Source: Acidobacteriota bacterium (GTDB lineage Bacteria > Acidobacteriota > UBA6911 > RPQK01 > CBDAPI01). From it: 64,000 nt of DNA. Each line of letters starts with the position of its first letter. Position 1 is the first letter of the stretch. The notes under the pieces are model-generated. The model was not told where the DNA came from. It saw only the letters and a program-made list of their open reading frames with translations, and made no database searches. This document shows, piece by piece, positions 2,069 through 64,000 of this stretch. A program made the translations under genes and the position numbers. The DNA lies in NCBI GenBank assembly GCA_965205615.1, contig CBDBHK010000033.1:102822-166821 (forward strand), written 5' to 3'.

Positions 2069-3205
2069 CTATGGTGGCGTTGGCTTGGCACTCTCTGCCA
2101 CACGTATGATCGCGTCGAGCTTCTCTTCGATCTCCGAGTCAATTTCTTCGGGTGGCACATACTGAGCGAGCTCATAAAAGCTCTTCTTTCTCATTAGATT
2201 AGGCAGGTCGAGCTTTTTGAAGTACTTCACGAACAGCGGCTCCAGGAAATCGTCGCTCACCTTGGCGTCGGTGCGCCATGGCGAGACTTTACCCAGCGTT
2301 TGCATCGCTCTCTCAACATCCTTGATGGACTCATGCATCGCGCGCATGCGCCGGTCGACTTCAGTGCTTGAAAATAGGGGTCCATGTGCTTCTTGTTCGG
2401 CCGATGCTATTGCATATCTCTCCAGAGTCGCTATGGAGCAAAAATAGTTTTCGATCTCCCGTCGCTCCCAACTTAGATATTCAATGCCATTAATCGTCGG
2501 AGTTTCATCTCCAGAGTGATCGAAAAGAACTGCGGCTTGCAGGTCCGGTAAAGCCTCTTTGAGGCCATAGTAGTGATTTCGGACCGATACCCAATGGCTC
2601 CCTACATAGTGCACAAACGGCCGTTTCAACACTCTATCAGCGTCTTTGTGGTGGAGACGCCTCGCGAACGCTTGCAATATGGCGAGGTCGGTCGAGCCTT
2701 CGAGGTAGAGCACCCATCCAGTCTGTGCTGCTTGACAATAGTGGTCGAAGCCAATCTCATTAAGCGCCTTCCGAACCTGGCTTCCCCGGTCATCAATCCG
2801 GTGCGGCGGCCCCACGAAGGCGATTACCATATCTTTTCTAGCGGCTTCGTTCAGGAGCACCTCGGAGTGGCTTGCAGCGATGATCTGGCTGCGACTCTCG
2901 GAGGCCGCATCTGTGAGCAGTTTATAGATCTCACGCTGGCGAAGAATTTCGAGGTGTGCGTCCGGCTCGTCGAGCAGGAGCACGGCGTCTGGGTTAGCGT
3001 ACATGTACGTCAGAATGAGCAGCGTCTGCTGCAAGCCCCGGCCACTGGAAGAAAGGTCGAGCGTAACCCCATGTTCCTGGTAGGTCATGGTGATCTCGCC
3101 GCGCTCCTTGATATAACGCGCGGGATTGAGCTTCGCCCCGAACAGATCCTCGATCTGCTCGACTAGCTTTTTCCCAATCCTCGGGCTGTTCCTGGTGAAT
3201 ACGGA
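2069..3205 (-). pseudogene. OLD-family ABC-type ATPase + Toprim nuclease (Gabija GajA / PARIS-like class), 5'-truncated (Walker A region missing)
   Basis: The reading frame is open from 3205 (no start codon; ORF finder reports 2069-3088). It contains an ABC Walker-B/D-loop (LLLDEPDAHL) and an H-loop (IIAASHSE). Toprim-like motifs follow: VLYLEGSTD (Glu) and AVLFDHSGDE (DxD). An N-terminal P-loop is absent. The frame ends ~28 bp from the oppositely oriented RT gene. Confidence 0.5.
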
Positions 3206-3232
3206 TTAAAGGTTGGGAAGCTACGGGAGACG

Positions 3233-4659
<1,427 letters not shown>

Positions 4660-4730
4660 ACCACCGCGCCACCTCTCGACTCTACCAGTCGAGTCGTGGA
4701 TCTCTTACGTAAAAGGCCTCGCGGGTATCC

Positions 4731-5827: not shown

Positions 5828-6148
5828 GTCATCATCTAAAGGGAAATCCCACCCCCTAAGACTAACTTTTTTCTTTTCGACGATTGAGTAGCAATCTGCT
5901 AGCGAGGGAACAGCTTCCACTTCGTTTCTTCAGCGTCGCCGCGAGTAATCGCCTCCTGGACGTCACGACCAAGTCGGTGTGGCTTTGCGGGCTCCAGAAA
6001 GTAGAGGGTGTAAAGTCCAGGGAAGCTGATGGAGGTCGTCAGGGGGTATACAGACGGGTTCCTCGCACCTTGATTTGACGTCGCCCCTCGCGTGGTCGTG
6101 CAGGGTTGGCGAATTCCGGCCCCACCCCACCTCTGCGGGGGGCCAACT

Positions 6149-7246
6149 TTAGCGCAGCCGGAGCGGCTGGGTGAACGCGCCGTTCCCCGCCACATCCCAC
6201 ACCTCGATCCGGGCGCGGGCCTTGCCCTTGAGCTCCATGGGCCACTCGAACGTCTTCCGTCCGAACTCGCGGGTTTCGGGAAGCTCGACCGTCTGGCGAC
6301 GGCCATCGACCACCAGCTCCACGGTTCGCAGCGGAAAGGTCCATTCGAGATCAGCTTTGATCAGGTCGTTGGTCGCCTCGAAGGAGTGAATCAGCACTTC
6401 GCCGGTGGTGACGAAGAAGTCCCCCCGACGGAGGACGTCGAGGACCGGCGACCAGTCGTCAAACGTGGGCATCTTTTTCAGCCGCAGGTAATTGACGTTC
6501 ATGTGGCCGTAGATCTCGTGGGTGGAGTCAACGGTAAAGCAGTCGACCTCACCGATCAGTTTCTTGTGCTGACCCCAGCGGTTCATGTCGTCCAGGAGGT
6601 CCAGCACGCGAACGCCGAGCCGCCCGTCGGAGAGGTCGCCGGGCATGAACTTCCACCCACCCCCCAGCCAGAGAGAGTCGTCCTTGTACCAGTCACGCTC
6701 CCGGTAGGCGTCGGGGGCGGCGGACGAGGACTTGATTCTCGGGTGGGCGGTCCAGGCGAGTCCCTTGTCGCGTCGGAGGACCTTGACCATGTCGGCCTCG
6801 CTCCCGGTGTGGTAGACGTGACCGTAGGGGGCGATCTCTTCCATGAAGGGCTGGCCTTGTTTGCGGACAAGCGTGAGGTAGACGGGTTTTGGGAACAGGT
6901 AGAGCCAGTGGCCGGGCTTCTGTTTCGCGGGAGGGGGGATGTTGAGATGGGCATTGGCCTCTTCGCCGGGGAGGAGCAGGAAGCGGTGGGTGGAGTATTT
7001 CCGACACGTGTCGAACATGGCCTGGAGCTGAGGAAGACGCTTCGGACCGGAATCGCGGGGATTCCCGTCCCCGTGGAACTCCGCCAGGTGGACGATGTTG
7101 ACGCCCATGTTCTTTAAGAGCCGGGAGAACTCACCGACGCGTGACTTCCCCGCCATCTCACTGACGGTGAGCTTTGCGTGCCAGTGGCTGGTGAGGGTGA
7201 GGCGGTCTTTCATCGGCTTGAAGGTGTCACCGTGGGTGTACTGCAA
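6149..7246 (-). CDS. Hypothetical protein, possible PHP-domain metal-dependent hydrolase (CehA/McbA-like)
   Basis: 365-aa ORF with TTG start. The N-terminal SHWH motif and downstream His/Asp/Glu residues resemble PHP phosphoesterase motifs. Weak, motif-level inference only. Confidence 0.3.
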   Translation of the reverse strand: MQYTHGDTFKPMKDRLTLTSHWHAKLTVSEMAGKSRVGEFSRLLKNMGVNIVHLAEFHGDGNPRDSGPKRLPQLQAMFDTCRKYSTHRFLLLPGEEANAHLNIPPPAKQKPGHWLYLFPKPVYLTLVRKQGQPFMEEIAPYGHVYHTGSEADMVKVLRRDKGLAWTAHPRIKSSSAAPDAYRERDWYKDDSLWLGGGWKFMPGDLSDGRLGVRVLDLLDDMNRWGQHKKLIGEVDCFTVDSTHEIYGHMNVNYLRLKKMPTFDDWSPVLDVLRRGDFFVTTGEVLIHSFEATNDLIKADLEWTFPLRTVELVVDGRRQTVELPETREFGRKTFEWPMELKGKARARIEVWDVAGNGAFTQPLRLR

Positions 7247-7279
7247 TACGCGATCGAAGGCCTCCCGGGGCTTGCCTCC

Positions 7280-7600
7280 ATGGAGGAGGACCTAGTCTCA
7301 CGCCAGTTTGGTGTCTATTGCCTCAACGCCTGCAGAGTCGTCTATTTCGTTGATGAGGAAGACGGTCCAGTTCGTCGTGCCGGGTTCGCCTATGGGACAC
7401 TGCCCAGCCACGTGGAGAAGGGTGAAGAACGGTTCAGCGTCGAGTGGAACCAGGAGACCGATGTGGTCCGCTACGATATCCTGGCCTTCTCTCGACCCAA
7501 CTCATTGGCGACGTGGATAGGGTATCCGCTGTCAAGGAGAATCCAAAAGACGTTTGCAGCTGAGTCTGCGAGGATTCTCCGATCTCGGGTAGATCAGTAA
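7280..7600 (+). pseudogene. DUF1990-family protein, C-terminal fragment
   Basis: GFAYGTLPSHVEKGEERFSVEWNQETDVVRYDILAFSRPNSLATWIGYPL matches the conserved DUF1990 core (GFAYGTLPGH..GEE.F.V....S.RP.). The upstream half of the domain is absent. The fragment is divergent to, and overlaps the start of, the 6149-7246 gene. Confidence 0.35.
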
Positions 7601-13579: not shown

Positions 13580-13630
13580 CAGCCTTCCCGGTTCTGGAAG
13601 CCATTCACTGAAGGAAACCGAGACCTCTAG

Positions 13631-15367
13631 CCCGCATAGATCACCGATTTGGAAATGAAGGTGATTTTGGCAGGCCGGAACGGTTTTCTGAGAGTTTCGC
13701 TATCGATCCGGTCCAGGTCGAGTGATGCGGTGGTGTGGATGGTCGTGAATGGAGCGTTTTTCGGGTTCGGAAGAGCGTGACGGAATGTATTCAGGCAGAG
13801 CTCGGCCTGAGCGATGGAACGATTTCGTTTTTGGGGGCGTTTGATCGGGACAGACCTCAGCAGCGCAGAGGAATGGCCTGGAGGTTTCGAACGACGGCAG
13901 CGAAGACCTCGCTGTAGGGATAGGCTTCCGACATGGAGATCCAGACGTGGCGGACCGTGAGGCGGACCTGGGCGCCGATCTTGAGGAGCTTCAAGCGAAT
14001 CGTCTGACACTGAGCGCGAGCCAGGGGGGTCTGCTTCAGTCCGAGACGACGCAAGGCGTGCATGAGCATGTAGGCGGCGGAGGACAGATACAGCCGGAGT
14101 TGATTGGCGCGCATCGTTGCCGCGCTGGTCCGGTCGGCGAACAGACCCAACTGCTGTTCTTTTATGCGGTTCTCCATGTCGCCCCGCGCACAGTAGAAGT
14201 CTTCGTAGAGCGCGCGGGCCCCCAGGCGTTCCGGCGACAGGGAGGTGACGACGAATCGGGGATTGGCGCCTTTGTCCAGGAACTCGGCCTTGCCGACGAC
14301 GCGTCGCTCCGAGGTCCAACTGTGGCGAGTCCGGTAGCGGAAATCCTTGAACACCCGCGCCGGTCGCCCGGTGGCGTTGAACTCGGCTTCGGCCTGAGTC
14401 ATCGCTTCGGCGCTCTCTGACTTGAGCCGATCATTGTTGGCCAACCCCATCACGTAATCCACGTGATGGTCTTCACACCAGCGGAGCAAGTCATCCCGGC
14501 AAAAGCCCGAGTCGGCCCGGATGACGATCGAGACCTCCGGCCAGCTCTGCCGAATCCGGCCGACGATCCGTTCCAGTTCCTCCACCGATCCCGCGGCCCC
14601 ATCGATATTGGAACACCGCAACCGGGCGCACAGCAGATGCTCCCCCGAGAAGATGTACAGCGGGAGATAACAGTAGTGGCGGTAGTAACCGTGAAAGAAC
14701 CGGCCTTCCTGCTGGCCATGGATCGGGTCGTCGGTCGCATCCAGATCCAGCACCATCTCCTCGGGCGCCGATTCGTGGGACTCCACGAAGGCATCCACCA
14801 TCCAGCCGTCGATCCGGTCCGGGTCCATCGCGATCTTCTTGTACCGCTCCTGCTCATCGACCTCGGCGCCGGTCAACTCCAACCGGTTCAGCGTACACCT
14901 GCCCGCCAGCGCCTTCCCCCGATCTGAGGCCTGCCGCCGCCTCTCCCCCAACGGATCGGCCTTATTCACCGCCACCGCCAGCATCGGATCGGTGCGCAAC
15001 TGATCATGATCGTTCAGATCCTCGTACCCCAGACAGAGTCCGTAGATGCGCTGCCCCAACAACTCCTCGACCGTGTGTTCGATCAACCGCGGATCCCGGT
15101 GATCCCTGAAACACTCAGCCAGTCCGGCGATCAGACCCGTCCCCCTCTCGACCTCTCGCAACAGCAGCACCCCTGCATCGGAGGTGATCTTCCCGCCGTC
15201 GAACCGCGCCTTCACTTTGCGTTGAAATAGTCCGTGAAATTCGAACCTGGCTTGTTTACACTCTGTTCTCATAAGGACCGCCTCCGTTTGCGTGTGAAAA
15301 CGTTCATTCAAAACGCTTTATACCAAACAGGGCGGCCTTTTCAGGTCCCATCGGTGAGAAATGGCGG
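13631..15367 (-). mobile_element. IS1380-family insertion sequence, copy 1 (intact transposase), 4-bp CTAG target duplication
   Basis: Ends: cccgcatagatcaccgat (13631-13648) and its 13/18-matching inverted partner at 15350-15367. Flanked by ctag on both sides (13627-13630 and 15368-15371). Near-identical to the copy at 55941-57664. Confidence 0.75.
13857..15311 (-). CDS. IS1380-family DDE transposase (DDE_Tnp_1_4-like)
   Basis: 484-aa ORF. N-terminal RFDGGKITSDAGVLLLREVERGTGL is characteristic of IS1380-family transposases. DDE region and C-terminal ARGDMENRIKEQ motif present. Probable true start at MRTECKQ (15272). Confidence 0.75.
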   Translation of the reverse strand: MNERFHTQTEAVLMRTECKQARFEFHGLFQRKVKARFDGGKITSDAGVLLLREVERGTGLIAGLAECFRDHRDPRLIEHTVEELLGQRIYGLCLGYEDLNDHDQLRTDPMLAVAVNKADPLGERRRQASDRGKALAGRCTLNRLELTGAEVDEQERYKKIAMDPDRIDGWMVDAFVESHESAPEEMVLDLDATDDPIHGQQEGRFFHGYYRHYCYLPLYIFSGEHLLCARLRCSNIDGAAGSVEELERIVGRIRQSWPEVSIVIRADSGFCRDDLLRWCEDHHVDYVMGLANNDRLKSESAEAMTQAEAEFNATGRPARVFKDFRYRTRHSWTSERRVVGKAEFLDKGANPRFVVTSLSPERLGARALYEDFYCARGDMENRIKEQQLGLFADRTSAATMRANQLRLYLSSAAYMLMHALRRLGLKQTPLARAQCQTIRLKLLKIGAQVRLTVRHVWISMSEAYPYSEVFAAVVRNLQAIPLRC

Positions 15368-17670: not shown

Positions 17671-19476
17671 ATGGGAGCAACCACGCAGACAGAAGAAAAT
17701 AAAGACAAACAAGCCAAGCCAGAGCAGGCTGTACCTGAGCTACCGCAAATCGTCGAAGAATCCGATGTTGGATACGAAGACATGGAGGCCGCCTACAAGA
17801 CCAGCTTTCGGAGTATTACGGAAGGTGAGGTCGTCGAAGGTCGGGTGCTCAAGGTCATCAGCAATGGCGTCATAGTCGATGTCGGATACAAATCCGAGGG
17901 AATGATATCTCTGCGTGAGTTCCGAAACGAGAAGGGTGAAGTCGAAGTCCAGGCCGGAGACAAAGTAGAAGTCTTACTCGAGCGTGCCGAAGGGCGGGAT
18001 GGATTCGTGGTCCTTTCCCGCGAGAAGGCGGAGCGCATGAAGATCTGGGACACAATCGAGAAGGCCTATCAGGAGCAGACCATTGTAAACGGGCGAGTCA
18101 TTGAAAGGATCAAGGGGGGACTGGCCGTAGATATCGGTGTGAGGGCTTTTCTTCCGGGCTCGCAGATTGACCTTCACCCGATCAGAAACCTGGATGTCTT
18201 CAGAGGCCAGGAGCTCGAGATGCGGGTCATCAAAGTCAATAAGAGACGGGGCAACATCGTCCTCTCGCGAAAGGCGGTTCTGGAGGAGGAGTATTTCAAA
18301 AAGAAGGAGGAGACGCTCAAGTTTCTGGAAGAGGGGCTGATTGTCTCCGGCGTCGTCAAGAACATAACCGACTATGGCGTCTTCGCGGACCTTGGCGGTA
18401 TCGACGGGTTACTCCACATCACGGACATGTCCTGGGGTCGCGTCAACCATCCTTCCGACCTGTTCCACGTGGGAGATGAGATCAATATAAAAATTCTCAA
18501 ATTCGATCGCCTGGAGGAAAAGGTGTCGCTCGGTTATAAGCAGCTGTCCGACGACCCCTGGCTGAGCGCCTCCCGACGTTATCCCAAGGGATCCCGTGTC
18601 GAGACCCGTGTTGTAAGCCTGACGGACTATGGCGCTTTCGTTGAGCTGGAGGAAGGCGTGGAGGGACTGATCCATATTTCGGAGATGACCTGGAACAAAC
18701 GGATCAAACACCCGTCGCAGTTACTGACCATAGGCGATAGTGTTGAGGCGGAAGTACTGGAAATCGATACCGAGGGTCGAAGGATCTCATTGGGGCTCAA
18801 GCAAACCGAGCCGAATCCCTGGGAAGAAATAGAAGCAAACTACGCCATCAACTCCATCGTGACGGGCCAGGTGCGGAACCTTACGGATTTCGGCGCTTTC
18901 ATTGAGGTAGAAGAGGGAGTTGACGGGCTCGTGCACGTGTCTGATTTGAGCTGGACCAAGAAGATCAAGCATCCGTCGGAAGTCTTGCAGAAAGGTGAAG
19001 AAGTCAGCGCCGTCGTCCTGAATGTTGATGCCGAACATCAACGCTTGTCGCTCGGAATCAAACAGCTCGAGCCGGACCGCTGGGAAGGGTTCTTTTCCGA
19101 GAAACAGATTGGCGACGTGATGCAGGGCAAAATCGTCAGGCTGGCTAATTTCGGAGCCTTTGTCGAGTTGGAGGAGGGCATAGAGGGCTTATGTCACGTG
19201 TCGGAACTCGACGTGGAGCGGATCGAGAACCCGGAGGACAAATTCTCGATAGGGCAGGAGCTTGACTTTAAGATCATCAAGATGAATCTTCTCGAGCGTA
19301 AGATTGGGTTGTCTATCAAAGCTCTCCTGGATCCCGGCAGCGACGAAGCTGAAGACACCTGGAGTTATGGCGCAGAAGTCGGGCGGACTTCAATAGGGGA
19401 AATTGCCGGAGACGAGCTGGGGCAGTTGAAGAAAAAGGCCGAGTTGGCAAAGGGGGACGAGAATGACGAAAGCTGA
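17671..19476 (+). CDS. rpsA: 30S ribosomal protein S1
   Basis: 601 aa with six S1 RNA-binding repeats (GxV.G.V..I...G.FV motifs repeated). An alternative start at 17782 (MEAAYKTSF) would remove an atypical N-terminal extension. Confidence 0.9.
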   Translation: MGATTQTEENKDKQAKPEQAVPELPQIVEESDVGYEDMEAAYKTSFRSITEGEVVEGRVLKVISNGVIVDVGYKSEGMISLREFRNEKGEVEVQAGDKVEVLLERAEGRDGFVVLSREKAERMKIWDTIEKAYQEQTIVNGRVIERIKGGLAVDIGVRAFLPGSQIDLHPIRNLDVFRGQELEMRVIKVNKRRGNIVLSRKAVLEEEYFKKKEETLKFLEEGLIVSGVVKNITDYGVFADLGGIDGLLHITDMSWGRVNHPSDLFHVGDEINIKILKFDRLEEKVSLGYKQLSDDPWLSASRRYPKGSRVETRVVSLTDYGAFVELEEGVEGLIHISEMTWNKRIKHPSQLLTIGDSVEAEVLEIDTEGRRISLGLKQTEPNPWEEIEANYAINSIVTGQVRNLTDFGAFIEVEEGVDGLVHVSDLSWTKKIKHPSEVLQKGEEVSAVVLNVDAEHQRLSLGIKQLEPDRWEGFFSEKQIGDVMQGKIVRLANFGAFVELEEGIEGLCHVSELDVERIENPEDKFSIGQELDFKIIKMNLLERKIGLSIKALLDPGSDEAEDTWSYGAEVGRTSIGEIAGDELGQLKKKAELAKGDENDES

Positions 19477-54101: not shown

Positions 54102-55192
54102 TGGAAGTTCTGATCATCAAGGTGGCGCTGGCCGGCGTCGTTTTTTTCGGGATCTTGAACTTCGCAGGGTTTCACACCTGGGTGGAGCGCAAACAGTCGG
54201 CCCTGATCCAGGACCGGATCGGTGCCAATCGGGCCTCGATCTTCGGATTCCGGGCGCTGGGACTTTTCCACGGCCTGGCCGATGTGCTCAAGATGTTCAC
54301 CAAAGAGGACATCGTCCCCACAGGGGCCGACAGGACGCTCCACACCCTGGCCCCGCTGTTCTCGGTGTTTTTTGCTCTGGTGGCCTTTGCCGCGATCCCT
54401 TTTGGAGACCGCCTCATCCTGGGCGACGGTCTGGTTATCGACCTGCAGGTGGCCAAGATCGACGCGGCTCTGCTCTATGTCTTCGCCATGCTCTCGCTCG
54501 GGGTCTACGGCGTGATTCTGGCCGGCTTCGCCTCGGGCAGCAACTACGCCATCATCGGGGGGCTGAGAGCCATGGCGCAGATGATCTCCTACGAGATCGC
54601 CCTGGGCATTGCCGTTGTCGGAGTGATCATGGTCTATGGGACCATGGATCTGGGTGAACTGGTGCGGGGCCAGGGGTACCTGATCGGCGGGTGGATCCCC
54701 TTCTGGGGCTTTCTCGCCCAGCCGGTCGCCTTCTTCATCTTCGTGACGGCGGCCCTGGCTGAAACCAAGCGACTTCCCTTCGACCTGCCGGAAGGCGAGT
54801 CGGAGATTATCGGATACTTTGTGGAGTACAGCGGCATGAAGTTCGGGATGTTTTTCCTCACGGATTTCCTGGAAACCATCATGGTCGCCTGTCTGGCCAC
54901 AACGCTTTTCTTCGGCGGCTGGCAGGTGCCTTTTCTGATGCCGGACGGTTTCCACTTCCCCTGGGGGGCACAGCTGCCGGTTCCCCATTTGATGTATGTG
55001 CTTCTCGGGGTGGCCAGCTTTTCAACCAAGGTCGTGATTTTCTGCTGGTTCTTCATGCAACTGCGCTGGACCCTGCCGCGCTTCCGCTACGACCAGCTCA
55101 TGAGTCTGGGCTGGAAGGGGCTCTTTCCCATCGCAGTGGCGAACGTGGTGGTGACAGCCGTAGTGCTGGTCTTTTTCGGGGAGGCGTCGTGA
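54098..55192 (+). CDS. nuoH: NADH-quinone oxidoreductase subunit H
   Basis: 364 aa. NuoH/ND1 motifs (SGSNYAIIGGLRAMAQMISYEI, EAKRLPFDLPEGESE). Confidence 0.9.
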   Translation: MMEVLIIKVALAGVVFFGILNFAGFHTWVERKQSALIQDRIGANRASIFGFRALGLFHGLADVLKMFTKEDIVPTGADRTLHTLAPLFSVFFALVAFAAIPFGDRLILGDGLVIDLQVAKIDAALLYVFAMLSLGVYGVILAGFASGSNYAIIGGLRAMAQMISYEIALGIAVVGVIMVYGTMDLGELVRGQGYLIGGWIPFWGFLAQPVAFFIFVTAALAETKRLPFDLPEGESEIIGYFVEYSGMKFGMFFLTDFLETIMVACLATTLFFGGWQVPFLMPDGFHFPWGAQLPVPHLMYVLLGVASFSTKVVIFCWFFMQLRWTLPRFRYDQLMSLGWKGLFPIAVANVVVTAVVLVFFGEAS

Positions 55193-55818
55193 TGGCCGTA
55201 AAAGTAGTCAGCAGACCCGAATTGACTTTCTGGGAAAAGCTCTACGTTCCGCAGATCCTGTGCGGCCTCAAAATCACCTCGGCCCATTTCTTCCGAAATC
55301 TTTTTCTTCACATCCTCCACCTCATCGGTCGCTTCAAGCATCTGCCCGCCTCGGTGACGATTCAATACCCCGATGAGCTGAGGCCGCTCATGTCGCGCTT
55401 CCGCAGTCGCCACCGGCTCACTCTGCGCGAGGATGACACCCCGCGCTGTGTGGGGTGCATGCTTTGCGAGACCGTCTGCCCGGCCAAATGCATCACGATC
55501 GTGCCCGGCGAGCACCCCGATCCCCACATCGAGAAGTATCCAATCCGCTTCGACATCGACCTGGGGATTTGCGTTTACTGCGGGTACTGCGTCGAGGCCT
55601 GCCCGGAGGACGCCATCCGAATGGACACAGGTATCCTCGACATCGCGGCCTACTCCAGGGAAGCAATGCAACTGGACATCCATGAGCTCATGGACCCGAA
55701 GTTACGGAAGCCGATCAAGGACTGCAGCCTGGAGTTCCCCCACCAGTGCGAGCTGCACGGTGGAGACATGAAGGGCAGCTGGGAAGCGGTGGATGGCTCG
55801 GTGGGACAAAAAGCCTAG
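55189..55818 (+). CDS. nuoI: NADH-quinone oxidoreductase subunit I (with ~50-aa C-terminal extension)
   Basis: Two 4Fe-4S ferredoxin motifs (CVGCMLCETVCP, CVYCGYCVEACP). 209 aa, longer than typical NuoI. Confidence 0.85.
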   Translation: MMAVKVVSRPELTFWEKLYVPQILCGLKITSAHFFRNLFLHILHLIGRFKHLPASVTIQYPDELRPLMSRFRSRHRLTLREDDTPRCVGCMLCETVCPAKCITIVPGEHPDPHIEKYPIRFDIDLGICVYCGYCVEACPEDAIRMDTGILDIAAYSREAMQLDIHELMDPKLRKPIKDCSLEFPHQCELHGGDMKGSWEAVDGSVGQKA

Positions 55819-55940
55819 ACACGGTCCGCCGAATGACTCTACAGTGGTTCGAGGTTCAGCAGTACACGAACCAGGCCCGCAGGCCATCGAGCCGCAATCT
55901 TGCCGAGCATGGAGTTCAATATGGGGATCATCAGTACTAA

Positions 55941-57664
55941 CCCGCATAGATCACCGATAGGACCTGAAAAGGCCGCCCTGTTTGGTATAAAGCGTTTTGA
56001 ATGAAAGACTTCAAAGCCAAACGGAGGCGGCCCTTATGAGAACAGAGTGTAAACAAGACAGGTTCGAATTTCACGGACTATTTCAACGCAAAGTGAAGGC
56101 GCGGTTCGACGGCGGGAAGATCACCTCCGATGCAGGGGTGCTGCTGTTGCGAGAGGTCGAGAGGGGGACGGGTCTGATCGCCGGACTGGCTGAGTGTTTC
56201 AGGGATCACCGGGATCCGCGGTTGATCGAACACACGGTCGAGGAGTTGTTGGGGCAGCGCATCTACGGACTCTGTCTGGGGTACGAGGATCTGAACGATC
56301 ATGATCAGTTGCGCACCGATCCGATGCTGGCGGTGGCGGTGAATAAGGCCGATCCGTTGGGGGAGAGGCGGCGGCAGGCCTCAGATCGGGGGAAGGCGCT
56401 GGCGGGCAGGTGTACGCTGAACCGGTTGGAGTTGACCGGCGCCGAGGTCGATGAGCAGGAGCGGTACAAGAAGATCGCGATGGACCCGGACCGGATCGAC
56501 GGCTGGATGGTGGATGCCTTCGTGGAGTCCCACGAATCGGCGCCCGAGGAGATGGTGCTGGATCTGGATGCGACCGACGACCCGATCCATGGCCAGCAGG
56601 AAGGCCGGTTCTTTCACGGTTACTACCGCCACTACTGTTATCTCCCGCTGTACATCTTCTCGGGGGAGCATCTGCTGTGCGCCCGGTTGCGGTGTTCCAA
56701 TATCGATGGGGCCGCGGGATCGGTGGAGGAACTGGAACGGATCGTCGGCCGGATTCGGCAGAGCTGGCCGGAGGTCTCGATCGTCATCCGGGCCGACTCG
56801 GGCTTTTGCCGGGATGACTTGCTCCGCTGGTGTGAAGACCATCACGTGGATTACGTGATGGGGTTGGCCAACAATGATCGGCTCAAGTCAGAGAGAGCCG
56901 AAGCGATGACTCAGGCCGAAGCCGAGTTCAACGCCACCGGGCGACCGGCGCGGGTGTTCAAGGATTTCCGCTACCGGACTCGCCACAGTTGGACCTCGGA
57001 GCGACGCGTCGTCGGCAAGGCCGAGTTCCTGGACAAAGGCGCCAATCCCCGATTCGTCGTCACCTCCCTGTCGCCGGAACGCCTGGGGGCCCGCGCGCTC
57101 TACGAAGACTTCTACTGTGCGCGGGGCGACATGGAGAACCGCATAAAAGAACAGCAGTTGGGTCTGTTCGCCGACCGGACCAGCGCGCCAATCAACTCCG
57201 GCTGTATCTGTCCTCCGCCGCCTACATGCTCATGCACGCCTTGCGTCGTCTCGGACTGAAGCAGACCCCCCTGGCTCGCGCTCAGTGTCAGACGATTCGC
57301 TTGAAGCTCCTCAAGATCGGCGCCCAGGTCCGCCTCACGGTCCGCCACGTCTGGATCTCCATGTCGGAAGCCTATCCCTACAGCGAGGTCTTCGCTGCCG
57401 TCGTTCGAAACCTCCAGGCCATTCCTCTGCGCTGCTGAGGTCTGTCCCGATCAAACGCCCCCAAAAACGAAATCGTTCCATCGCTCAGGCCGAGCTCTGC
57501 CTGAATACATTCCGTCACGCTCTTCCGAACCCGAAAAACGCTCCATTCACGACCATCCACACCACCGCATCACTCGACCTGGACCGGATCGATAGCGAAA
57601 CTCTCAGAAAACCGTTCCGGCCTGCCAAAATCACCTTCATTTCCAAATCGGTGATCTATGCGGG
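55941..57664 (+). mobile_element. IS1380-family insertion sequence, copy 2 (inverted relative to copy 1; transposase inactivated by 13-bp deletion)
   Basis: Perfect 18-bp terminal inverted repeats cccgcatagatcaccgat (55941-55958) / atcggtgatctatgcggg (57647-57664). Flanks ctaa / ctag. Internal sequence near-identical to copy 1. Confidence 0.8.
55997..57438 (+). pseudogene. IS1380-family transposase with 13-nt deletion (gcaacgatgcgcg missing after 57187) causing frameshift
   Basis: Direct DNA comparison with copy 1: accagcgcg|ccaatc here versus accagcgcg-gcaacgatgcgcg-ccaatc in copy 1. The deletion is flanked by a gcgcg microhomology. The ORF splits into 55997-57259 and 56989-57438. Confidence 0.8.
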
Positions 57665-57667
57665 CTA

Positions 57668-58806
57668 GTGGTGAGACATAGAAGTAACACTATAGTTTCT
57701 TCCAAATGTAAGGCCTCGGATTTTCATTGAGGTAGCTGATGCCCTTCTGCAGCCCCGCTTCGATTTGTGCCGGTGTCCGATAATCGGTGTTCTGCAAGGC
57801 GGTCAGGTGTAGGGTCGCAAAGTAGGATTCGATCAAATTGAGCCAGGAACTATTGGTGGGCGTCCAATGCAGTTGAATTCGCCGGCAGTGCTGGGCCAAG
57901 AATTTGCGGACTGGCGGAGCCTTGTGTGGGCGCTCAGATTGTCCAGAATGAGATGGATTCGCCCTTCGGGCCACTCCCGCAGGACCACCTCCTGCAGAAA
58001 GGCCCGACAGTTGTCGCTGTTTTTGTTGGGAGTTGAGCGGCCCACGGCCCGACCGGTGTGAGGAGAAAATGCGGCGAAGAACTGCAGAACTCCATGCTTG
58101 CGTTGGTAGCGGTTGGATCGGGGGGCGGCGCGGACTCCCCAGCTGCGCCCGCCCCGCGGAATGGTCTGCAAAGGTCCCAACTCGTCGAAGCAGACCACGG
58201 GGCCATCGTCCGGAGGATGCCGATAGAGCCGGATTATGGCGTTTTTTTTACTTCGTAGTCCGGGTCGGTACTCCGGCACCAGCTTTGACCGGTCAGAAAA
58301 CGCAGCCCATGGCGATGAAGAATGCGCCGGATGGTCTCGCGGCTCAGCACCTCTTCTTGGGCGCGCAGGTAGCCTTCCAGCTTGATCAGCGACCAGGTGG
58401 TAAAGGGCAAACCCAGATCCGGAGGGCGGGAGGTGGCCGCCTCGATCACCCGTGTTTCGGTCTTTTGATCGTAGAGTCGGGGTCGGCCCGGCCGCGGGAG
58501 TCCCAGCAGACGAGGCAATCCCTCGCTCTGGAAACGCTTGGCCCATGCGTGGGCGTTGGTGTAATGCAGACCCGTGATTACAGAAGCTTGCGCGAGGTTG
58601 TAGCCTGCCGCCAAAAGCCAGATCAAGCGACATCGGCGAAAAACCGAAGCGGAAGTCTTTTCGGCCCTCAGCAGACGTTGCAGTTCGAGCAGTTCGTCCG
58701 CCGCGAGGGATCGCAGTGGAAACCGTTTGTTGGCCATTGACTGCGATCATACTATGCGGCCTCTTTTCAGGCAATTAAATATAGTAGTATTATGTGTCAC
58801 GCCACT
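57668..58806 (-). mobile_element. IS630 (Tc1/mariner)-family insertion sequence, TA-flanked, transposase frameshifted
   Basis: Imperfect terminal inverted repeats gtggtgagacatagaagtaacactatag (57668-) and ctatagtagtattatgtgtcacgccac (-58806). TA on both flanks (57666-57667; 58807-58808). 1139 bp. Confidence 0.65.
57690..58737 (-). pseudogene. IS630-family DDE transposase, split over three reading frames
   Basis: HTH N-terminus (58234-58737: RCRLIWLLAAGYNLAQASVITGLHYTNAHAWAKRF). DDE core (57833-58774 frame). C-terminus (57690-57974: WLNLIESYFATL). At least two frame changes. Confidence 0.65.
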
Positions 58807-59206
58807 AGGTCTTCCACCCAGAAGGTCTAACGGGTTGTAGTTCACTGTGAGCGGCCTCGTTCAACACATCGCCGACCCATTGATTCAAACTCTTTCCCGC
58901 GGCGGTTGCAGCTTCTACCGCCTCCTGGTGAAGTTCCGGTGGTATGCGGACATTGAACTTGCCAGAAAACTTCTTGCGAGGTTCTATACCACGTTGCTCG
59001 CATGCTTTTAGAAAGACCTTAAGGGAGGTCGCACCCTCTTTACGTAGCCCCTTAATATCGGAGGCGTAAAAGTCAGCTCCGCCGTTCAGCCCGATAAATT
59101 CCCCGCGGATCATATCGATGTCTGGATCGTAAGTGACAACGGCCTTGAAGCCACTGATGTCCAATGTATTGCTCATCATGGTGTTACTCCGTTTGCCTTC
59201 AGCCAA
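58805..59206 (-). CDS. hicB: HicB-family antitoxin (type II toxin-antitoxin)
   Basis: VVTYDPDIDMIRGEFIGLNGGADFYASDIKGLRKEGATSLKVFLKACEQRGIEPRKKFSGKFNVRIPPELHQEAVEAATAAGKSLNQWV matches the HicB N-domain plus C-terminal RHH (SGKFNLRIPPELH...GKSLNQWV) consensus. Alternative start MMSNTLD at 59179. Confidence 0.75.
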   Translation of the reverse strand: MAEGKRSNTMMSNTLDISGFKAVVTYDPDIDMIRGEFIGLNGGADFYASDIKGLRKEGATSLKVFLKACEQRGIEPRKKFSGKFNVRIPPELHQEAVEAATAAGKSLNQWVGDVLNEAAHSELQPVRPSGWKT

Positions 59207-59367
59207 TCTCTCACGCTTGCGACAGCGCCTTTGTCAGTGGAGGGGCTAGGGTGGGGGCGATGGTACACTCGCACCTCACCCAACAGAAAAACTACTACAC
59301 GGCTTCCTTCGCGCTCCTCCAGTTCAGCACCCAATTCCTTCAGCAAGCCCTTAACATCAACCCACTT
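59176..59367 (-). CDS. hicA: Putative HicA-like toxin, 5' end abutting (possibly truncated by) the IS3 left end
   Basis: C-terminal 63 aa of the 59176-59481 ORF, KGLLKELGAELEEREGSRVVVFLLGEVRVYHRPHPSPSTDKGAVASVRDWLKANGV, loosely follows the HicA pattern (LLEKDGW..GSH....HP...V..H...l..Gtl.sILKqAG). The upstream part of the ORF lies inside IS3-A and is not counted. No ATG precedes it. Confidence 0.35.
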   Translation of the reverse strand, partial: KWVDVKGLLKELGAELEEREGSRVVVFLLGEVRVYHRPHPSPSTDKGAVASVRDWLKANGVTP

Positions 59368-59421
59368 TGGAGTTCCCCCGGTTTCGTGGACACCTAATCC
59401 TTTGGGAGAATGGAGGACACG

Positions 59422-59736
59422 ATGCCAAGAACAAGACGAGCTTATCCACCCGAGTTTCGCCAGCAGATAGTCGAGCTTCATCGAGCCGGGCGCAGCCCCG
59501 GTGAGCTGGCCCGAGAGTTTGAACCCAACGAACAGACGATCCGCAACTGGATCGCCCAGGCAGACCTGGATGAAGGCCGTCGTAGAGACGGCCTGACGAC
59601 GGTAGAACGAGCCGAGCTGCGGAAGTTGCGCAAAGAAAATAGGCAGCTGAGGGTTGAGCGGGAAATATTGGCAAAAGCCGCGGCCTGGTTCGCACGGGAG
59701 AGCGATCCGATTTCCAAGAAGTCTTCAGGTTCGTGA
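59422..59736 (+). CDS. IS3-family transposase OrfA (HTH + leucine zipper)
   Basis: MPRTRRAYPPEFRQQIVELHRAGRSPGELAREF...LRKLRKENRQLRVEREILAKAAAWFARE. Stop overlaps the orfB ATG (ATGA). Confidence 0.7.
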   Translation: MPRTRRAYPPEFRQQIVELHRAGRSPGELAREFEPNEQTIRNWIAQADLDEGRRRDGLTTVERAELRKLRKENRQLRVEREILAKAAAWFARESDPISKKSSGS

Positions 59737-60121
59737 AAGTGAATCAGGCCGACTATCCAATCACCACCATGTGCCGTTTGCTGGGTGTCTCCACCAGTGG
59801 CTACTACGCGTGGGTCGATCGCGGACCTTCGACTCGCGATGAAGCGAATGCTCGTCTTCTGGAAACAATCAACGGGATCCACCAGCAAAGTCGTCGGACC
59901 TATGGAGCTCCCCGCATTACGGCGGAACTTCGAGAGGAAGGTCACCTGGTGGGCAAAAACCGGGTGGCCCGACTGATGAAAGTCGCCGGCATTGAAGGCG
60001 TTAGCCGCAGACGCAAGACACGCACGACCCTGAGAGGCCAAGACAGCCGTCCGGCTCCGGATCTGGTGGAGCGAAACTTCCAGGTCAGCCGCCCCAACCG
60101 ACTGTGGGTTGCAGACATCAG

Positions 60122-60742
60122 TGTGCCGCAGCAAGCGGCGTGAGAGATGGGAGTAGGCCTCCCGCAACCGGCTTGCAGGAGCAGGTTGCAAACCACCGTA
60201 AGTGGCTGTGGTCAAAAGCCGCGGTCGTGAGCGTTACGGAAAAGGTGCTCTAGAAGCATCAGGTGTGGATCAGGAAGACGAACACAAGTGAACCACCGTT
60301 CAAGTGCCGAAAGGACGAGATGGTGTCGAAACCGGGGAGTTGATGTTGCCCCGGGACGAATCTGGCGGAAACCTGTCTACTGGCCAGGTGGCACCCGGCA
60401 TAGAGGTGGCGTGAGCTTGATCTGGGCTCTCATGTTGAACTGCGGGAACCTGGAGCAACGATGCTAAGAGAAAGGCACAAGCAGAGAACCTGCGAGGCCG
60501 ACAGTATCGAAGCGTTGCCCAGGGGCGGACAAGCTCGTAGTAGCGATGAGGCTGTCGTAATGGCAGCGGAGCGAAGGGGCTTGGTCACTCGGCTACAGAC
60601 AAGCGGCCAACTGCTAGGCAGGAGGAGCCCTTGAAAGTAGCAAAGCCATTTTGTGGCTTGAGTGATAGGAGCCGGATGAGCTGAGAGGTTCACGTCCGGT
60701 TCTTGGAGGGGCTGGGGGTGAGACTCCCCCGGCCTACTCAAC
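60122..60742 (+). mobile_element. ORF-less group II intron (621 nt) inserted in IS3-A orfB
   Basis: 5' GUGUG (60122-60126). 3' end ...AAC (60742). Domain V gagccggatgagctgagaggttcacgtccggttct (60669-60703) with AGC triad, G-U pair, AC bulge and GAGA tetraloop. Domain VI hairpin ggggctggggg-tgagact-cccccggcc with bulged A 60736, 7 nt from the 3' end. Candidate EBS1 TGATGT (60351-60356, in a ccgggg/ccccgg hairpin loop) complementary to the last 6 exon nt ACATCA. No RT ORF inside. Confidence 0.75.
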
Positions 60743-60978
60743 CGTACGTGCCGAGTTGGGCAGGTTTCGTCTACCTGGCCGTAGTGGTCGACGCTTTCAG
60801 TCGTCGAGTGGTCGGCTGGTCGCTCAGAAATGATCTCAAGACCCGGCTAGTGACCGATGCCCTGCAAATGGCACTTCAAGAGCGTGAATCCGACGGGGTG
60901 ATCCATCACTCGGACCAGGGGACGGAACGTGTCAACAACTTTGAGACACTTTGGTGAATAAATTACTGTAGTTTCATC

Positions 60979-61977
60979 TCAAAAGTTCTCCTTTTCGGGA
61001 GGGTTGATCCAGACCGCCTCGGGAAGAGGAGGAGGAACGGGGTTGCCGTTGGGAAATCTCTCCGGGAAGAGTGCATGGGCGGCCTCCAATGTTTGGGATC
61101 GATCGCGACGGGTGGTGATGGCGGTGAGGTAGTGCACATCCGCGGGAGTGTGCAGGCCGATACCCGAATGGCGATGGTCGCGGTTATACCAATCGAAGAA
61201 ATCCCGACAGAAGTCTCTGGCTTGCTGAATGGTGCCGAAACGAGCCGGGAATTCGGGACGGTACTTGAGGGTCTTGAATTGGGATTCCGAGTAGGGATTG
61301 TCGTCACAGACATGAGGCCGAGAGTGAGACTTGGTGACTCCCAGATCGGCCAGTAGCAAGGCCAGTGCTTTGGAACTCATCGACGAGCCACGATCGGCAT
61401 GCAGGGTGAGACCACCCGCTACGATCTCCTGCTTGGAGTAGCTCTGGGCGATCAAGACCTTGGCCAGGCGGGAGCTTTCCTGGGTGGCCACCATCCAGCC
61501 CACCACATAGCGGCTGAAGATGTCCAGGATCACGTAGAGGTAGTAATAGCTCCATTTGACGGGCCCCTTCAGCTTGGTGATGTCCCACGACCAGCATTGG
61601 TTCGGGCCGGTGGCCAGAAGTTCCGGCTTGGAGTATTGGGGATGGCGGCGCTGGCGACGGCGTTCTCTAACTTCCAGACGTTTGGCCAGAATGCGGTACA
61701 TGGTTCGAATCGAGCACAAGTATCGCCCTTCGTCCAGCAGCTCCGCCCATACGGCGGCAGGAGCTTTGTCGATAAACTGTCGGCTGTGCAGGACCTCCAC
61801 AACGGCTTCCCTTTCGGGCGGGCTCAAGGCGCGTGGGGATGCGGCCCGAGGCCGAGGATCCAGCGCCGGCCGTTCGCGCCGAAGTTTCTCCCGATACAGA
61901 CTCGATGGCGGCAGATCCAGAGCCTGACAGCCGGCACGGACTCCGTGGGATTGTGAGAATCGCAAAGCTTCGTCCAT
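60979..61977 (-). CDS. IS3-B transposase OrfB (rve integrase core, DDE)
   Basis: 332 aa. WSWDITK (D), HADRGSSMSS (D), CDDNPYSESQFKTLK (E) with the conserved K/R. C-terminal HRHSGIGLHTPADVH. Confidence 0.7.
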   Translation of the reverse strand: MDEALRFSQSHGVRAGCQALDLPPSSLYREKLRRERPALDPRPRAASPRALSPPEREAVVEVLHSRQFIDKAPAAVWAELLDEGRYLCSIRTMYRILAKRLEVRERRRQRRHPQYSKPELLATGPNQCWSWDITKLKGPVKWSYYYLYVILDIFSRYVVGWMVATQESSRLAKVLIAQSYSKQEIVAGGLTLHADRGSSMSSKALALLLADLGVTKSHSRPHVCDDNPYSESQFKTLKYRPEFPARFGTIQQARDFCRDFFDWYNRDHRHSGIGLHTPADVHYLTAITTRRDRSQTLEAAHALFPERFPNGNPVPPPLPEAVWINPPEKENF

Positions 61978-62477
61978 CAGCTCTCGTCTCCGTTCTCTTC
62001 GCTGCTCGCCAGAGAGATTCCCAACAGTTGCGAGACTTTTTTTTGGAGATCCAGCATGGCTTCAAACTTCTCGAGCTTGCGTTTCAGCTTCCGATTCTCA
62101 GCCTCCACTTGCCTCAGTTGATGATCCAGAGGATTGACCGGCTTTGCCTTTCGTCCCCGCTTGCGAGGGGTCAATGCCTGCAGCGTTCCGTGCTCGCGTT
62201 GGCGTCGCCAGGTCTGCAGATTCGACCAGTAAAGTCCTTCTCGGCGCAGTAATGCTCCCACTTCGCCCGACTCTTCGCAGCCATCGGCCTGCTCCAGGAC
62301 CCGGAGCTTATAGCGGGCTGAAAACCGGCGACGGGTTGCCTTGGCAGGAACTTCCGGGTCGGGTCGCGGCAACGCCTTCTCGGGCTCGGTCCGTCCCGCA
62401 GCGATTTTGGAGACCTCTCCCCTCCGCTCCGAGGTTTCCAAAATCCTCAGTTTCTTGTCGCTTCTGTTTTCTATCAT
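61977..62477 (-). CDS. IS3-B transposase OrfA
   Basis: 166 aa with HTH and leucine-zipper segments. Ends at an ATGA overlap with orfB. Confidence 0.65.
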   Translation of the reverse strand: MIENRSDKKLRILETSERRGEVSKIAAGRTEPEKALPRPDPEVPAKATRRRFSARYKLRVLEQADGCEESGEVGALLRREGLYWSNLQTWRRQREHGTLQALTPRKRGRKAKPVNPLDHQLRQVEAENRKLKRKLEKFEAMLDLQKKVSQLLGISLASSEENGDES

Positions 62478-62805
62478 TCTGTAATCCAGCTTCTCGCCCT
62501 CTACTCTAATTTAGCCGGGAAGAAGTATCTCACCATTATTGGCACAGAGGGGGACGCAATACACGTCGATCGAGTTCGGGCTGCGCTGCAAGAGAGCCGG
62601 CATCAGACCCTCCATGGGCTCGGTCGGTGACTGTTATGACAACGCGCTGTGTGAGAGCTTTTTTGCCTCTCTGGAGTGTGAACTGATCGACCGGCACAGC
62701 TTCCGCAGCAAGCTGCAGGCCAGGCTTGCTGTCTTTGACTACATCGAGGGCTTTTTACAACCCTCACAGGCGGCACTCGTCACTGGACTATCTGTCGCCG
62801 ATCAA

Positions 62806-63407
62806 CTATGAATCGAGGCACTCAGATGTGGCTTGATTCGAAAGCCGTAAACTGTCCACAAAAGTGGGGTAACTGCACTTTACGTTACCGCTATGCTTGT
62901 CGTCATCCGTCACCCGGAAGCCTACCGGATGTTTTTTCGGCGGTTCGGGCGGCTCCAGTAACCCTTGGATGTGCTCGAAGAGGATGCCGATTGCCTGGTC
63001 GTGCTGGGCGACCTTGCGGGCCAGTTCCTCATTGGTCGCCAGCATCCGGCGGAGCCGGACGAAGGTCCGCATGATCGCGACATTCACCTGTAGGCGATCT
63101 TGCTACGAAGGATGCCTGAGAGCATCGCCACGCCTTGCTCCGTGAATGCATAGGGTGCGTAGCGTCGCCCACCCCAACTTGAGGTGCCAGTTTGGCTTCT
63201 CAAGTTGTCGAACTCTTCCTTGGTTAGTTGAAAGGCGAAATCCTCCGGGAAGCGGTCAAGGTTGCGCTTCATGGCCCGAACCAGCGCTCCGGTCTCGACG
63301 TGATAGAGTTCGGCCAGATCGGCATCGAGCATGATGCTTTCGCCGCGGATTACGTAGATCTGCGTGGCGATGCGTTCGATCGGAATGACGCTTTTCTCCC
63401 TGGCCAT
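62806..63407 (-). pseudogene. ORF6N-domain (KilA-N-like) protein, frameshifted (~63085), with its 3' end overlapped by the IS3-A terminus
   Basis: N-part [65 protein letters not shown]...[22 protein letters not shown] (63084-63407). It continues in another frame as NVAIMRTFVRLRRMLATNEELARKV...PKKHPVGF (62806-63087). Confidence 0.55.
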
Positions 63408-63438
63408 TCGGTCACTGTGGCGAAGCGCGGAGTCGCTG

Positions 63439-64000
63439 TCAAGGGGGCTCTTTCCCCCTGCTCTCTCCTTTCGCTTCTGGGTCTAGTCCCGCCAGTTCCC
63501 GAAGCCGATAGGCGCTCGAGTGGCGCCCGAGATCGCGGAGGGCTCGGGACAAGACGTTCTCTCTTGCGCCAGTCTGGAACTTCGAAATCAGGAGCGATGC
63601 GGTCACCCAACCCAACTTGAGTGAGCCGGCCACCCGGAGGAGTTCGTCCCAGTTGTCGAGTAGGGTCTTGCTCCGAACCAATCCCTTCAGCAGAACCGCG
63701 ACCCCTTCTTTTTGCGGAGGAGCATCGAGACGATACAAGCGCTGAGCGCCCAAGTCCCGGATGCGCGGGGCGCACTGCAGCCCCAGAAGATGAAACAGGG
63801 CGAAGACGATCTCGGTGTAGCCAGCGGTGTCCGTCGTGTGCTCGAGGATCTCGTCGAGGACATAGGTCGCGTCACGAACCGTAGACGAGATGACCTTCGA
63901 CCCGTACTGCGAGTACTGGTCCGAGGTCCAGGTGTAGAAAGTGAGGCCCCTTCCGAGGCCGAAATATTTCGGGAGCGCGGTCGCGTTCTCCGCCGAACCT
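63439..64000 (-). CDS. tnpA: Tn3-family transposase TnpA, C-terminal ~187 aa (partial; gene continues beyond the window end)
   Basis: Continuous minus-strand frame from the window edge: [73 protein letters not shown]...[18 protein letters not shown] is the conserved Tn3 TnpA C-terminus. The ORF finder showed only 63439-63753 from an internal Met. Confidence 0.65.

Follow-up and report, generated by a model that had tools for sequence, protein, structure and literature searches.

An IS3-family element carrying an ORF-less group II intron and a second IS3-family element in mobile DNA beside the nuo operon of an Acidobacteriota bacterium

The window analysed here is a stretch of 64,000 nucleotides from an Acidobacteriota bacterium (assembly GCA_965205615.1, contig CBDBHK010000033.1, positions 102,822 to 166,821). 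Its nuoI gene is followed by an island of plasmid- and Tn3-derived DNA that varies between strains and contains hicAB, ORF6N and Tn3 remnants. Within this island lies an IS3-family insertion sequence (IS), which we call IS3-A, whose orfB transposase gene is split by a group II intron that lacks its open reading frame (ORF) and by a second, intact IS3-family element, IS3-B. We consider it highly probable that the locus arose by ordered insertions into a patch of mobile DNA, with the intron riding with IS3-A. A first-pass annotation of the sequence had listed an IS1380-type element (copy 2 of two), an IS630-type element, hicB-hicA, IS3-A, the intron, IS3-B, an ORF6N gene and a Tn3-family transposase, and all of these are present, with boundaries that match or nearly match. 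Related loci and contigs used for comparison are given as L numbers.

IS3-A and its two insertions

IS3-A spans 59368–62877 on the + strand. It begins TGGAGTTCCCCC and ends GGGGTAACTGCA, and its terminal repeats (TGGAGTT.../...AACTGCA) form imperfect TG...CA inverted repeats: the left repeat, starting at 59368, is TGGAGTTCCCCCGGTTTCGTGGACA, and the right repeat, ending at 62877, has the reverse complement TGCAGTTACCCCACTTTTGTGGACA. A CTT target duplication lies on either side (59365–59367 and 62878–62880). Ends of the TG...CA type and a duplication of 3–5 bp are features of the IS3 family, as is the gene content, a helix-turn-helix orfA and an rve-type DDE orfB in 0/−1 frames (the overlap is read from the coordinates). 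The orfA gene (59422–59736, +; Pfam HTH_Tnp_1) encodes 104 aa, or 108 aa from an ATG at 59410, and a candidate slippery site, GCAAAAG, lies near 59668. The orfB gene is in three pieces, all on the + strand. The first (59733–60120; Pfam HTH_21) is in the −1 frame relative to orfA and ends within the T codon of WVADIT; the second (60743–60922; Pfam rve) reads ...YVPSWAGFVYLAVVVD...HHSDQG; the third (62555–62830; Pfam rve_3) is shifted in frame by an extra T and was reconstructed with a single-base repair.

The first-pass annotation had read these pieces as one gene interrupted by the intron and by IS3-B, and they do rejoin in frame. When 60121–60742 and 60925–62556 are cut out (the latter, 1632 nt, being IS3-B plus one copy of its target duplication), a 1256-bp element is left with orfA and a continuous −1-frame orfB that reads ...RLWVADITYVPSWAGF..., ...RLWVADITYVPSWAGFVYLAVVVD...HHSDQGTQYTSIEF.... 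The sole frame break is the extra T, in the run at 62752–62756, where the other 17 full-length copies have T4. Six intact, intron-less copies of IS3-A (L014, L018–L022) are 1255 bp long, 99.2–99.6% identical to the reconstruction and collinear with it over both insertion points; their 280-aa OrfB scores 338.7 bits against NCBIfam NF033516 (cutoff 160). Boundaries lying elsewhere, or orfB pieces from unrelated IS copies, had been named in advance as outcomes that would speak against the nest. Neither was found: the boundaries drawn from independent copies and an empty-site allele agree with those first annotated, and the pieces form one frame, collinear with the intact copies. The depth of the nest had been overstated, at three levels. 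It is two, with the intron and IS3-B both inserted directly in IS3-A, 180 bp apart. Three-level nests do occur elsewhere, where the ORF-less intron within IS3-A has itself received either a relative of IS3-B at 89% identity (L017/L142, 5700–7949, and L150) or an IS1380-type element (L027/L149).

IS3-B (60923–62551, − strand; 1629 bp) is flanked by a GGA duplication (60920–60922 and 62552–62554), and its ends were set by aligning eight other copies. Its orfA (62477–61977) and orfB (61977–60979, both −; Pfam HTH_Tnp_1 and rve/rve_3) are arranged in 0/−1 frames with an A8G slippery run, CCAAAAAAAAG, at about 62036–62044, and its transposase scores 177.3 bits against NF033516 (cutoff 160). The two elements resemble the IS3 family in their 0/−1 orfA/orfB arrangement, A-rich slippery site, rve DDE domain, 3-bp duplications and lengths of 1.25–1.63 kb. 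IS3-B differs from it at the extreme termini, which are not TG...CA: the element ends CCCTCTGTGCC... and ...GACACGTTCCG, and the inverted-repeat match begins six bases inward. The eight other copies (L001–L008), at different loci in four samples, encode an identical 332-aa OrfB and are 99.9–100% identical over 1627–1632 nt, with perfect 3-bp duplications in seven of the eight. Because near-identical copies lie at other loci, mostly with perfect duplications, IS3-B is probably active, in agreement with the earlier suggestion that it is intact and may still move.

The insertion of IS3-A can be compared with an empty site. The contig L010, an exact match for nuoH, is collinear with window positions 55000–59368 and then 62876–63491, at 99.4–99.5% identity. 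L010 has no IS3-A in hicA, which shows that the window insertion truly distinguishes strains. When the chimeric IS3-A/hicA ORF was looked up, no match was on record, and no strain with exactly the same insertion was found. IS3-A itself is widespread: its exact OrfA product occurs in 251 blocks of a public assembly index, and 12 of 18 copies have a perfect 3-bp target duplication. An oppositely oriented IS3-A with the same intron is present in L010 as well, about 3 kb beyond the empty site.

Separately, the intron-bearing IS3-A copies at 18113–19989 of L010 and at 4947–6823 of L015 have a right flank in common (cgtagcggtaga, a resolvase gene) and different left flanks. Only the L015 copy has a duplication, a pattern that fits recombination between IS3-A copies.

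The ORF-less intron, its parent and its targets

The intron (60121–60742, +; 622 nt) lies in the sense orientation relative to orfB, between bases 1 and 2 of the Thr codon in W-V-A-D-I-T-Y. Comparison with intron-less IS3-A alleles sets its boundaries exactly, at GUGUG...CUCAAC, in accordance with the GUGYG and AY ends of group II introns, and the predicted ligated exon junction in orfB is GCAGACATCA|CGTACGTGCC. Rfam matches cover domain 1 (D1) at 60149–60264 (RF01999, 111.9 bits, gathering threshold 36) and D5/D6 at 60667–60742 (RF00029, 59.6 bits, gathering threshold 40). A single-sequence fold gives six domains (z = −4.95), with D5 at 60669–60702 containing the AGC triad and D6 containing a bulged branch A at 60736, 7 nt from the 3ʹ end. 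In an alignment of seven ORF-less relatives, 49 of 197 predicted pairs have compensatory changes, and the fold of this alignment agrees with the six-domain ribozyme. D4 is a stub (60642–60659) that does not encode an intron-encoded protein (IEP), so that the window intron belongs to the recognised subtype of ORF-less derivatives. Six ORF-less introns resident in IS3-A were compared; five differ by 0–2 nt, with no difference in D5/D6, and the sixth (L017) is interrupted by an IS.

The parent form of the intron is 1835 nt long and encodes a 422-aa reverse transcriptase (RT)/maturase (L016, L040). The same ribozyme, at 98.9–100% identity, occurs in L016 and at about a dozen loci of the metagenome-assembled genome (MAG) CBDEGM01 with a D4 insert of 1213–1214 nt, a length estimated from BLAST coordinates. 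The 422-aa IEP starts at a TTG at intron nt 511, stops within D5, has no endonuclease domain and scores 380 bits against TIGR04416 (cutoff 300). It is 51% identical to the IEP of an Escherichia coli intron resident in ISEc1. Relative to the parent, the ORF-less form has lost about 405 codons in frame (1215 nt including one shared junction base). Its junction, GCCATTT|TGTGGCTT at 60651|60652, leaves a short D4 hairpin and a 17-codon ORF (60631–60684, +; MKVAKPFCGLSDRSRMS), made up of 7 codons from the start of the IEP and 10 from its end. On this comparison, the window intron is a deletion derivative of an IEP-bearing parent. The deletion junction coincides with that of an 88.5%-identical intron in a Competibacteraceae MAG (L028). 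That of a second ORF-less copy (L085) differs, and ORF-less relatives in other phyla (L028, L105, L123, L049, L135) each have their own short D4. Because the L085 junction and the D4 stubs in other phyla differ, ORF loss recurs in this intron clade. Many of the relatives were found by scanning for the D5 34-mer, which is common to introns of many phyla (more than 116 loci) and does not provide a census of this intron.

Elsewhere in the window, a second, unrelated group II intron remnant (3100–4685, +) has an IEP split by a frameshift (3233–3664 and 3697–4659) and D5/D6 at 4532–4685 (RF00029, 45.2 bits); D1–D3 appear to be missing, with only about 130 nt between the neighbouring gene and the IEP start. 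We considered the IEP at 3233–4659 as a helper for the intron in IS3-A and rejected it, as it is frameshifted and 31% identical. An AAA_21/AAA_15 (AbiEii/OLD-like) ATPase ORF at 2069–3088 (−), for which the Pfam match is confined to the C-terminal end of the profiles, is probably a 5ʹ-truncated gene abutting the intron remnant. In L146, a 418-aa RVT_1 protein (6073–7329) is encoded about 1 kb downstream of an intron-bearing IS3-A; at 37% identity to the intron IEP it is a different RT.

The position of the intron in orfB matches its predicted target recognition. The loop of the exon-binding site 1 (EBS1) hairpin at 60341–60347 (UGAUGUU) is complementary to the last seven bases of the 5ʹ exon, GACAUCA, which constitute intron-binding site 1 (IBS1) and encode the D-I-T of the first catalytic aspartate motif of the transposase. 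In relatives with other targets, the two sides of the pairing change together: loop TGAAGT is found with 5ʹ exon ACTTCA (L036, L088), AGATGT with ACATCT (L062), TCTCGT with ATGAGA (L035), TTATGT with ACATAA (L089) and TGACGT with ATGTCA (L123). TGG at −15 to −13 of the exon is also conserved among relatives. Among 25 distinct insertion contexts of the clade, 15 match the IS3-type motif W-x-x-D-(I/F/V/L/M)-(T/S)|(Y/F/N), or about 14 if L122, an apparent chance mimic, is left out. A further two, including one carried by a Gloeocapsopsis plasmid, fall within IS6-type transposases, at W-x-V-D-E-T|(Y/F). Judged by these contexts, the usual target of the clade is the first catalytic-Asp motif in IS3 and IS6 transposase genes. 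We found no specific description of group II introns that target DDE motifs in the literature searched, although one may still exist.

A different site is occupied in CBDEGM01, where at least five full-length introns (L071, L076, L078, L103, L138) lie at one repeated sequence, ...GGTGGGTTTCATCGTCA|CCAATATGAGC..., in a gene whose product, ...FYNGRGTAEQWI, resembles an IS1380-type transposase. EBS1 there has an A-to-G change (UGGUGU), and the repeated sequence appears to be an additional site to which the same intron homes.

The island next to nuo

Copy 2 of the IS1380-type element (55941–57664, +; Pfam DDE_Tnp_1_4, E 2e-124) begins 120 bp past nuoI. Its ends, CCCGCATAG...CTATGCGGG, bear terminal inverted repeats, and indels make its transposase ORF (55997–57259) shorter than the 471-aa version in L010. 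The left end, at 55941, is also the exact end of synteny with L009, L011 and L012 (their position 11843), and the element is flanked by CTAA and CTAG, where other copies have CTAG on both sides. Because synteny stops at the left end of the IS and the flanks are unmatched, these data suggest that an IS1380-mediated rearrangement may have placed the hicAB/ORF6N/Tn3 patch beside nuo. From 55941 onward, four related contigs that have nuoI in common differ in their mobile elements, which bears out the earlier description of the region as a transposition hotspot. Copy 2 is 98.6% identical to copy 1 (13623–15357, −), in which the left inverted repeat has diverged and CTAG is duplicated at the flanks.

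An IS630-type element with a split transposase follows (57668–58805, −; Pfam DDE_3 and HTH_32/HTH_29; transposase pieces spanning 57690–58737, −). Inverted repeats of about 30 nt can be read from its sequence, and it is flanked by TA duplications (57666–57667 and 58806–58807). The DDE_3-type transposase and the TA duplication are those of the IS630 family. As first annotated, the element is inserted at a TA by the IS1380 end. This TA lies within the CTAG there, and also within the hicB stop codon.

The antitoxin gene hicB (58805–59206, −; Pfam HicB, E 1.9e-21) is intact. Its 124-aa product is found, identical, on many contigs, several of them circular and plasmid-like, adjoining Tn3 remnants. 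The whole hicAB/ORF6N/Tn3 patch is imported mobile DNA. The adjacent hicA is a remnant (59176–59367, −; Pfam HicA_toxin, E 1.7e-8) that runs from codon W of ...SGNVK|WVDVKG... to the stop, with the five upstream codons on the far side of IS3-A (62878–62892). With hicA (PF07927) both truncated at its 5ʹ end and split by IS3-A, the locus does not contain an intact HicAB pair, despite the intact hicB (PF05534) next to it.

The loss of the hicA 5ʹ end had been tentatively attributed to IS3-A. Native HicA, in L153, starts MKRKHQKTLELIFRRPVSGNVKW.... In L156, L010 and the window, the 3ʹ end of ORF6N substitutes for the first ~17 hicA codons, with the junction KH|SGNVKW, and the IS3-A insertion point is five codons past this junction. 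Because L156 and L010 have the same ORF6N/hicA junction, the truncation predates IS3-A. Thus IS3-A does abut hicA, as stated, but the ~17 codons had gone earlier. Similarly, the ORF6N-family gene (62893–63407, −; Pfam ORF6N, E 8.9e-35 over 63084–63407) is a pseudogene, as stated, with an internal frameshift near 63087 and a lost stop codon that fuses it to the hicA remnant, but its 3ʹ end was not overrun by IS3-A: the intact ORF6N of L156 encodes 172 aa with the C-terminus ...DDDKH*, a natural stop that is upstream of where IS3-A went in. We reject IS3-A as the cause of either change on the evidence of L153, L156 and L010.

The window ends within a Tn3-family transposase fragment (63439–64000, −; Pfam DDE_Tnp_Tn3, E 1.4e-43, profile positions 115–278 of 389), which had been correctly described as running off the edge. 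L010 has an additional IS200-type insertion at the Tn3 fragment that the window lacks. Near-identical loci occur in two Acidobacteriota bacterium MAGs, CBDBGQ01 and CBDEGM01.

Order of insertions, spread and comparison with known systems

We propose that the IS1380-type element came to lie past nuoI, at the synteny breakpoint, and that the CTAG at its end subsequently received the IS630-type element, at the TA. The 5ʹ end of hicA would already have been lost to the ORF6N segment when IS3-A transposed into the hicA remnant and duplicated CTT. IS3 elements move by copy-out/paste-in. IS3-A most likely arrived with the ORF-less intron already in orfB, and IS3-B would have come last; it lies in orfB between GGA duplications, and its arrival would have killed this IS3-A copy. 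We place IS3-B last because it is 100% identical to other copies and is absent from this orfB site in all other IS3-A copies compared.

The proposal that the intron travelled with IS3-A draws on other intron-bearing copies. The identical ORF-less intron occupies the same IS3-A site at 12 or more further loci (L010, L013, L015, L017, L027/L149, L067, L143, L145–L148, L150). Six of these loci have 3-bp duplications of their own, and one additional locus, L016, holds the full-length form. A truncated OrfB of 134 aa, the mark of intron-bearing copies, occurs in 67 index blocks, compared with 251 for OrfA. In a test that used single-nucleotide polymorphisms (SNPs) to distinguish hitch-hiking from retrohoming, the only informative column of the IS3-A alignment was 816, where a derived G is present in 6 of 12 intron-bearing copies and 0 of 7 intron-less copies. 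Because G816 is seen only in intron-bearing copies, this suggests that IS3-A and the intron transpose as a unit. SNPs in the intron separate the IS3-A-resident copies from those of another MAG, and do not resolve the order of events.

Several observations weigh against this reconstruction. Six of the 18 IS3-A copies have no duplication, and recombination between copies must therefore also shape IS3-A loci. The window copy of IS3-A has four private differences, the extra T included, which could be real decay or long-read assembly errors. The only full-length intron found within IS3-A, that of L016, has a split IEP, and no intact copy of the matching IEP is present in the 64-kb window. Lastly, placing the intron before the insertion into hicA depends on one informative SNP together with parsimony, which leaves room for later retrohoming.

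Such retrohoming is one of two alternatives that we regard as possible but do not favour. An intron-less IS3-A would have entered hicA first, the ORF-less intron would then have retrohomed into it with an IEP supplied in trans, and IS3-B would have followed. The intron does sit at a bona fide homing site, with 7 bp of EBS1/IBS1 complementarity that covaries in relatives; intron-less IS3-A copies are common; full-length introns with intact IEPs are present in a related Acidobacteriota MAG; and ORF-less introns that are mobilised or spliced in trans have been documented (PMC2882425, PMC4424553). However, the distribution of G816 is more easily explained by composite transposition, no intron-less IS3-A was found resident in hicA, and the only empty-site strain, L010, already has an intron-bearing IS3-A nearby.

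How intron-bearing copies of IS3-A might keep moving depends on whether the intron splices. From what is known of such introns, this one would be a non-autonomous retroelement, with splicing and retrohoming dependent on the protein of sister full-length copies. Because the intron is oriented like orfB, its splicing would yield an uninterrupted transposase mRNA, which is the likely reason that intron-bearing IS3-A copies can still spread; the source of their transposase could be this spliced message or, in trans, intact copies. The second alternative is that the intron no longer splices in vivo, such that intron-bearing IS3-A is a dead, non-autonomous passenger moved by transposase in trans. 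Abundant intact IS3-A copies could supply OrfAB, the IS3 ends are intact in intron-bearing copies, and no matching intact IEP was found on the same contigs. We nonetheless think this explanation unlikely. The ribozyme is conserved at 0–2 differences in five of six copies, none of them in D5/D6; D5, the branch A and EBS1 are intact; and compensatory changes extend across ORF-less relatives in other phyla. This conservation, together with the compensatory changes, argues for continuing selection on RNA function.

A long-read assembly artefact, whether through mis-joined repeats or through orfB pieces drawn from different IS copies, is very improbable: the homopolymer indel, the private differences and the IS1380 and IS630 ORFs that are broken relative to L010 do point to imperfect consensus quality, but the expected target duplications (CTT, GGA, TA) are present at each junction, the pieces fit together in frame and align collinearly, at >99% identity, with intact copies, and independent assemblies contain the same architectures (IS3-A with the intron, and IS elements nested in these).

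Our preferred reading, ordered insertion with the intron carried in IS3-A, can be extended to a broader and distinctly speculative scheme. IS3-A and the ORF-less intron might form an IStron-like composite that spreads mainly at the DNA level, with IEP-dependent splicing gating the transposase; the composite would belong to an intron clade that has specialised, across several phyla, on the first catalytic-Asp codons of IS3 and IS6 DDE transposases and that has lost its ORF repeatedly. We regard this scheme as tentative and, on balance, doubtful.

All components belong to known families, and the E. coli intron E.c.I4 in IS3 elements is a direct precedent. E.c.I4/S.f.I1, of bacterial class A, is a multi-copy intron found only in IS elements (IS629, IS911, ISEc16 and ISEc31) of E. 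coli and Shigella (PMC3522654). Like the window intron, E.c.I4 homes in the sense orientation into IS3-family orfB genes at W-x-x-D-(I/V)-T-Y (PMC3522654), and introns in IS transposase genes are in general already known (PMC3522654, PMC4238363). In E. coli E24377A, the E.c.I4 site is ...W-C-G-D-V-T-Y-I|..., 6 nt downstream of the position equivalent to that of the window intron. In contrast to the window intron, E.c.I4 is 2271 nt long, with a 502-aa IEP, and is probably of a different class (PMC3552965). Nor is it among the E. coli relatives of the window ribozyme; we had expected it there, and found instead an intron resident in ISEc1/ISAs1, at 66–72% identity. No ORF-less derivative of E.c.I4 was reported in the literature searched.

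RmInt1, a class D intron of Sinorhizobium meliloti, similarly lives in an IS, ISRm2011-2, and has an RT/maturase without an endonuclease domain. It differs in being a full-length, autonomous intron with another target sequence and another host IS family, ISRm2011-2 being an IS630-family element. The ORF-less introns of Thermosynechococcus elongatus and of the Zimmerly database likewise have a complete ribozyme and a deleted D4 ORF, with sister full-length copies that could act in trans (PMC2882425, PMC4424553). Unlike these, the ORF-less form described here far outnumbers the full-length form in IS3-A, and it is inside a DNA transposon able to carry it. IStrons, which combine a group I intron with an IS200/IS605-type element, also couple a self-splicing intron to a DNA transposon, with movement at the DNA level and splicing that limits damage (PMC4227781). 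In an IStron, the IS lies in or beside the group I intron and the unit enters host genes, whereas here a group II intron splits the IS transposase gene.

For annotation, the analysis places the ends of five mobile elements next to nuo exactly, assigns target duplications and proposes the order of insertion. The locus is, in addition, a natural high-copy case of an ORF-less group II intron, a type called rare in bacteria (PMC4424553), that is tied to a defined full-length parent and to a DNA vehicle. The system is convenient for testing the trans-mobilisation of ORF-less introns and the control of IS transposition by splicing; for RmInt1, splicing has been discussed as a control on the spread of the host IS (PMC4238363, PMC3035460). 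Current concepts are unchanged by these findings.

Two minor features lie near the other end of the window. A lone 67-aa fragment of an IS3-type orfA (1822–2025, +; HTH_Tnp_1) has no adjoining orfB. Within an ORF at 86–1207, a perfect 129-bp tandem duplication (282–540, +; 2.0 copies, 100% match, 43 codons) may reflect either a genuine in-frame duplication or an error of assembly.

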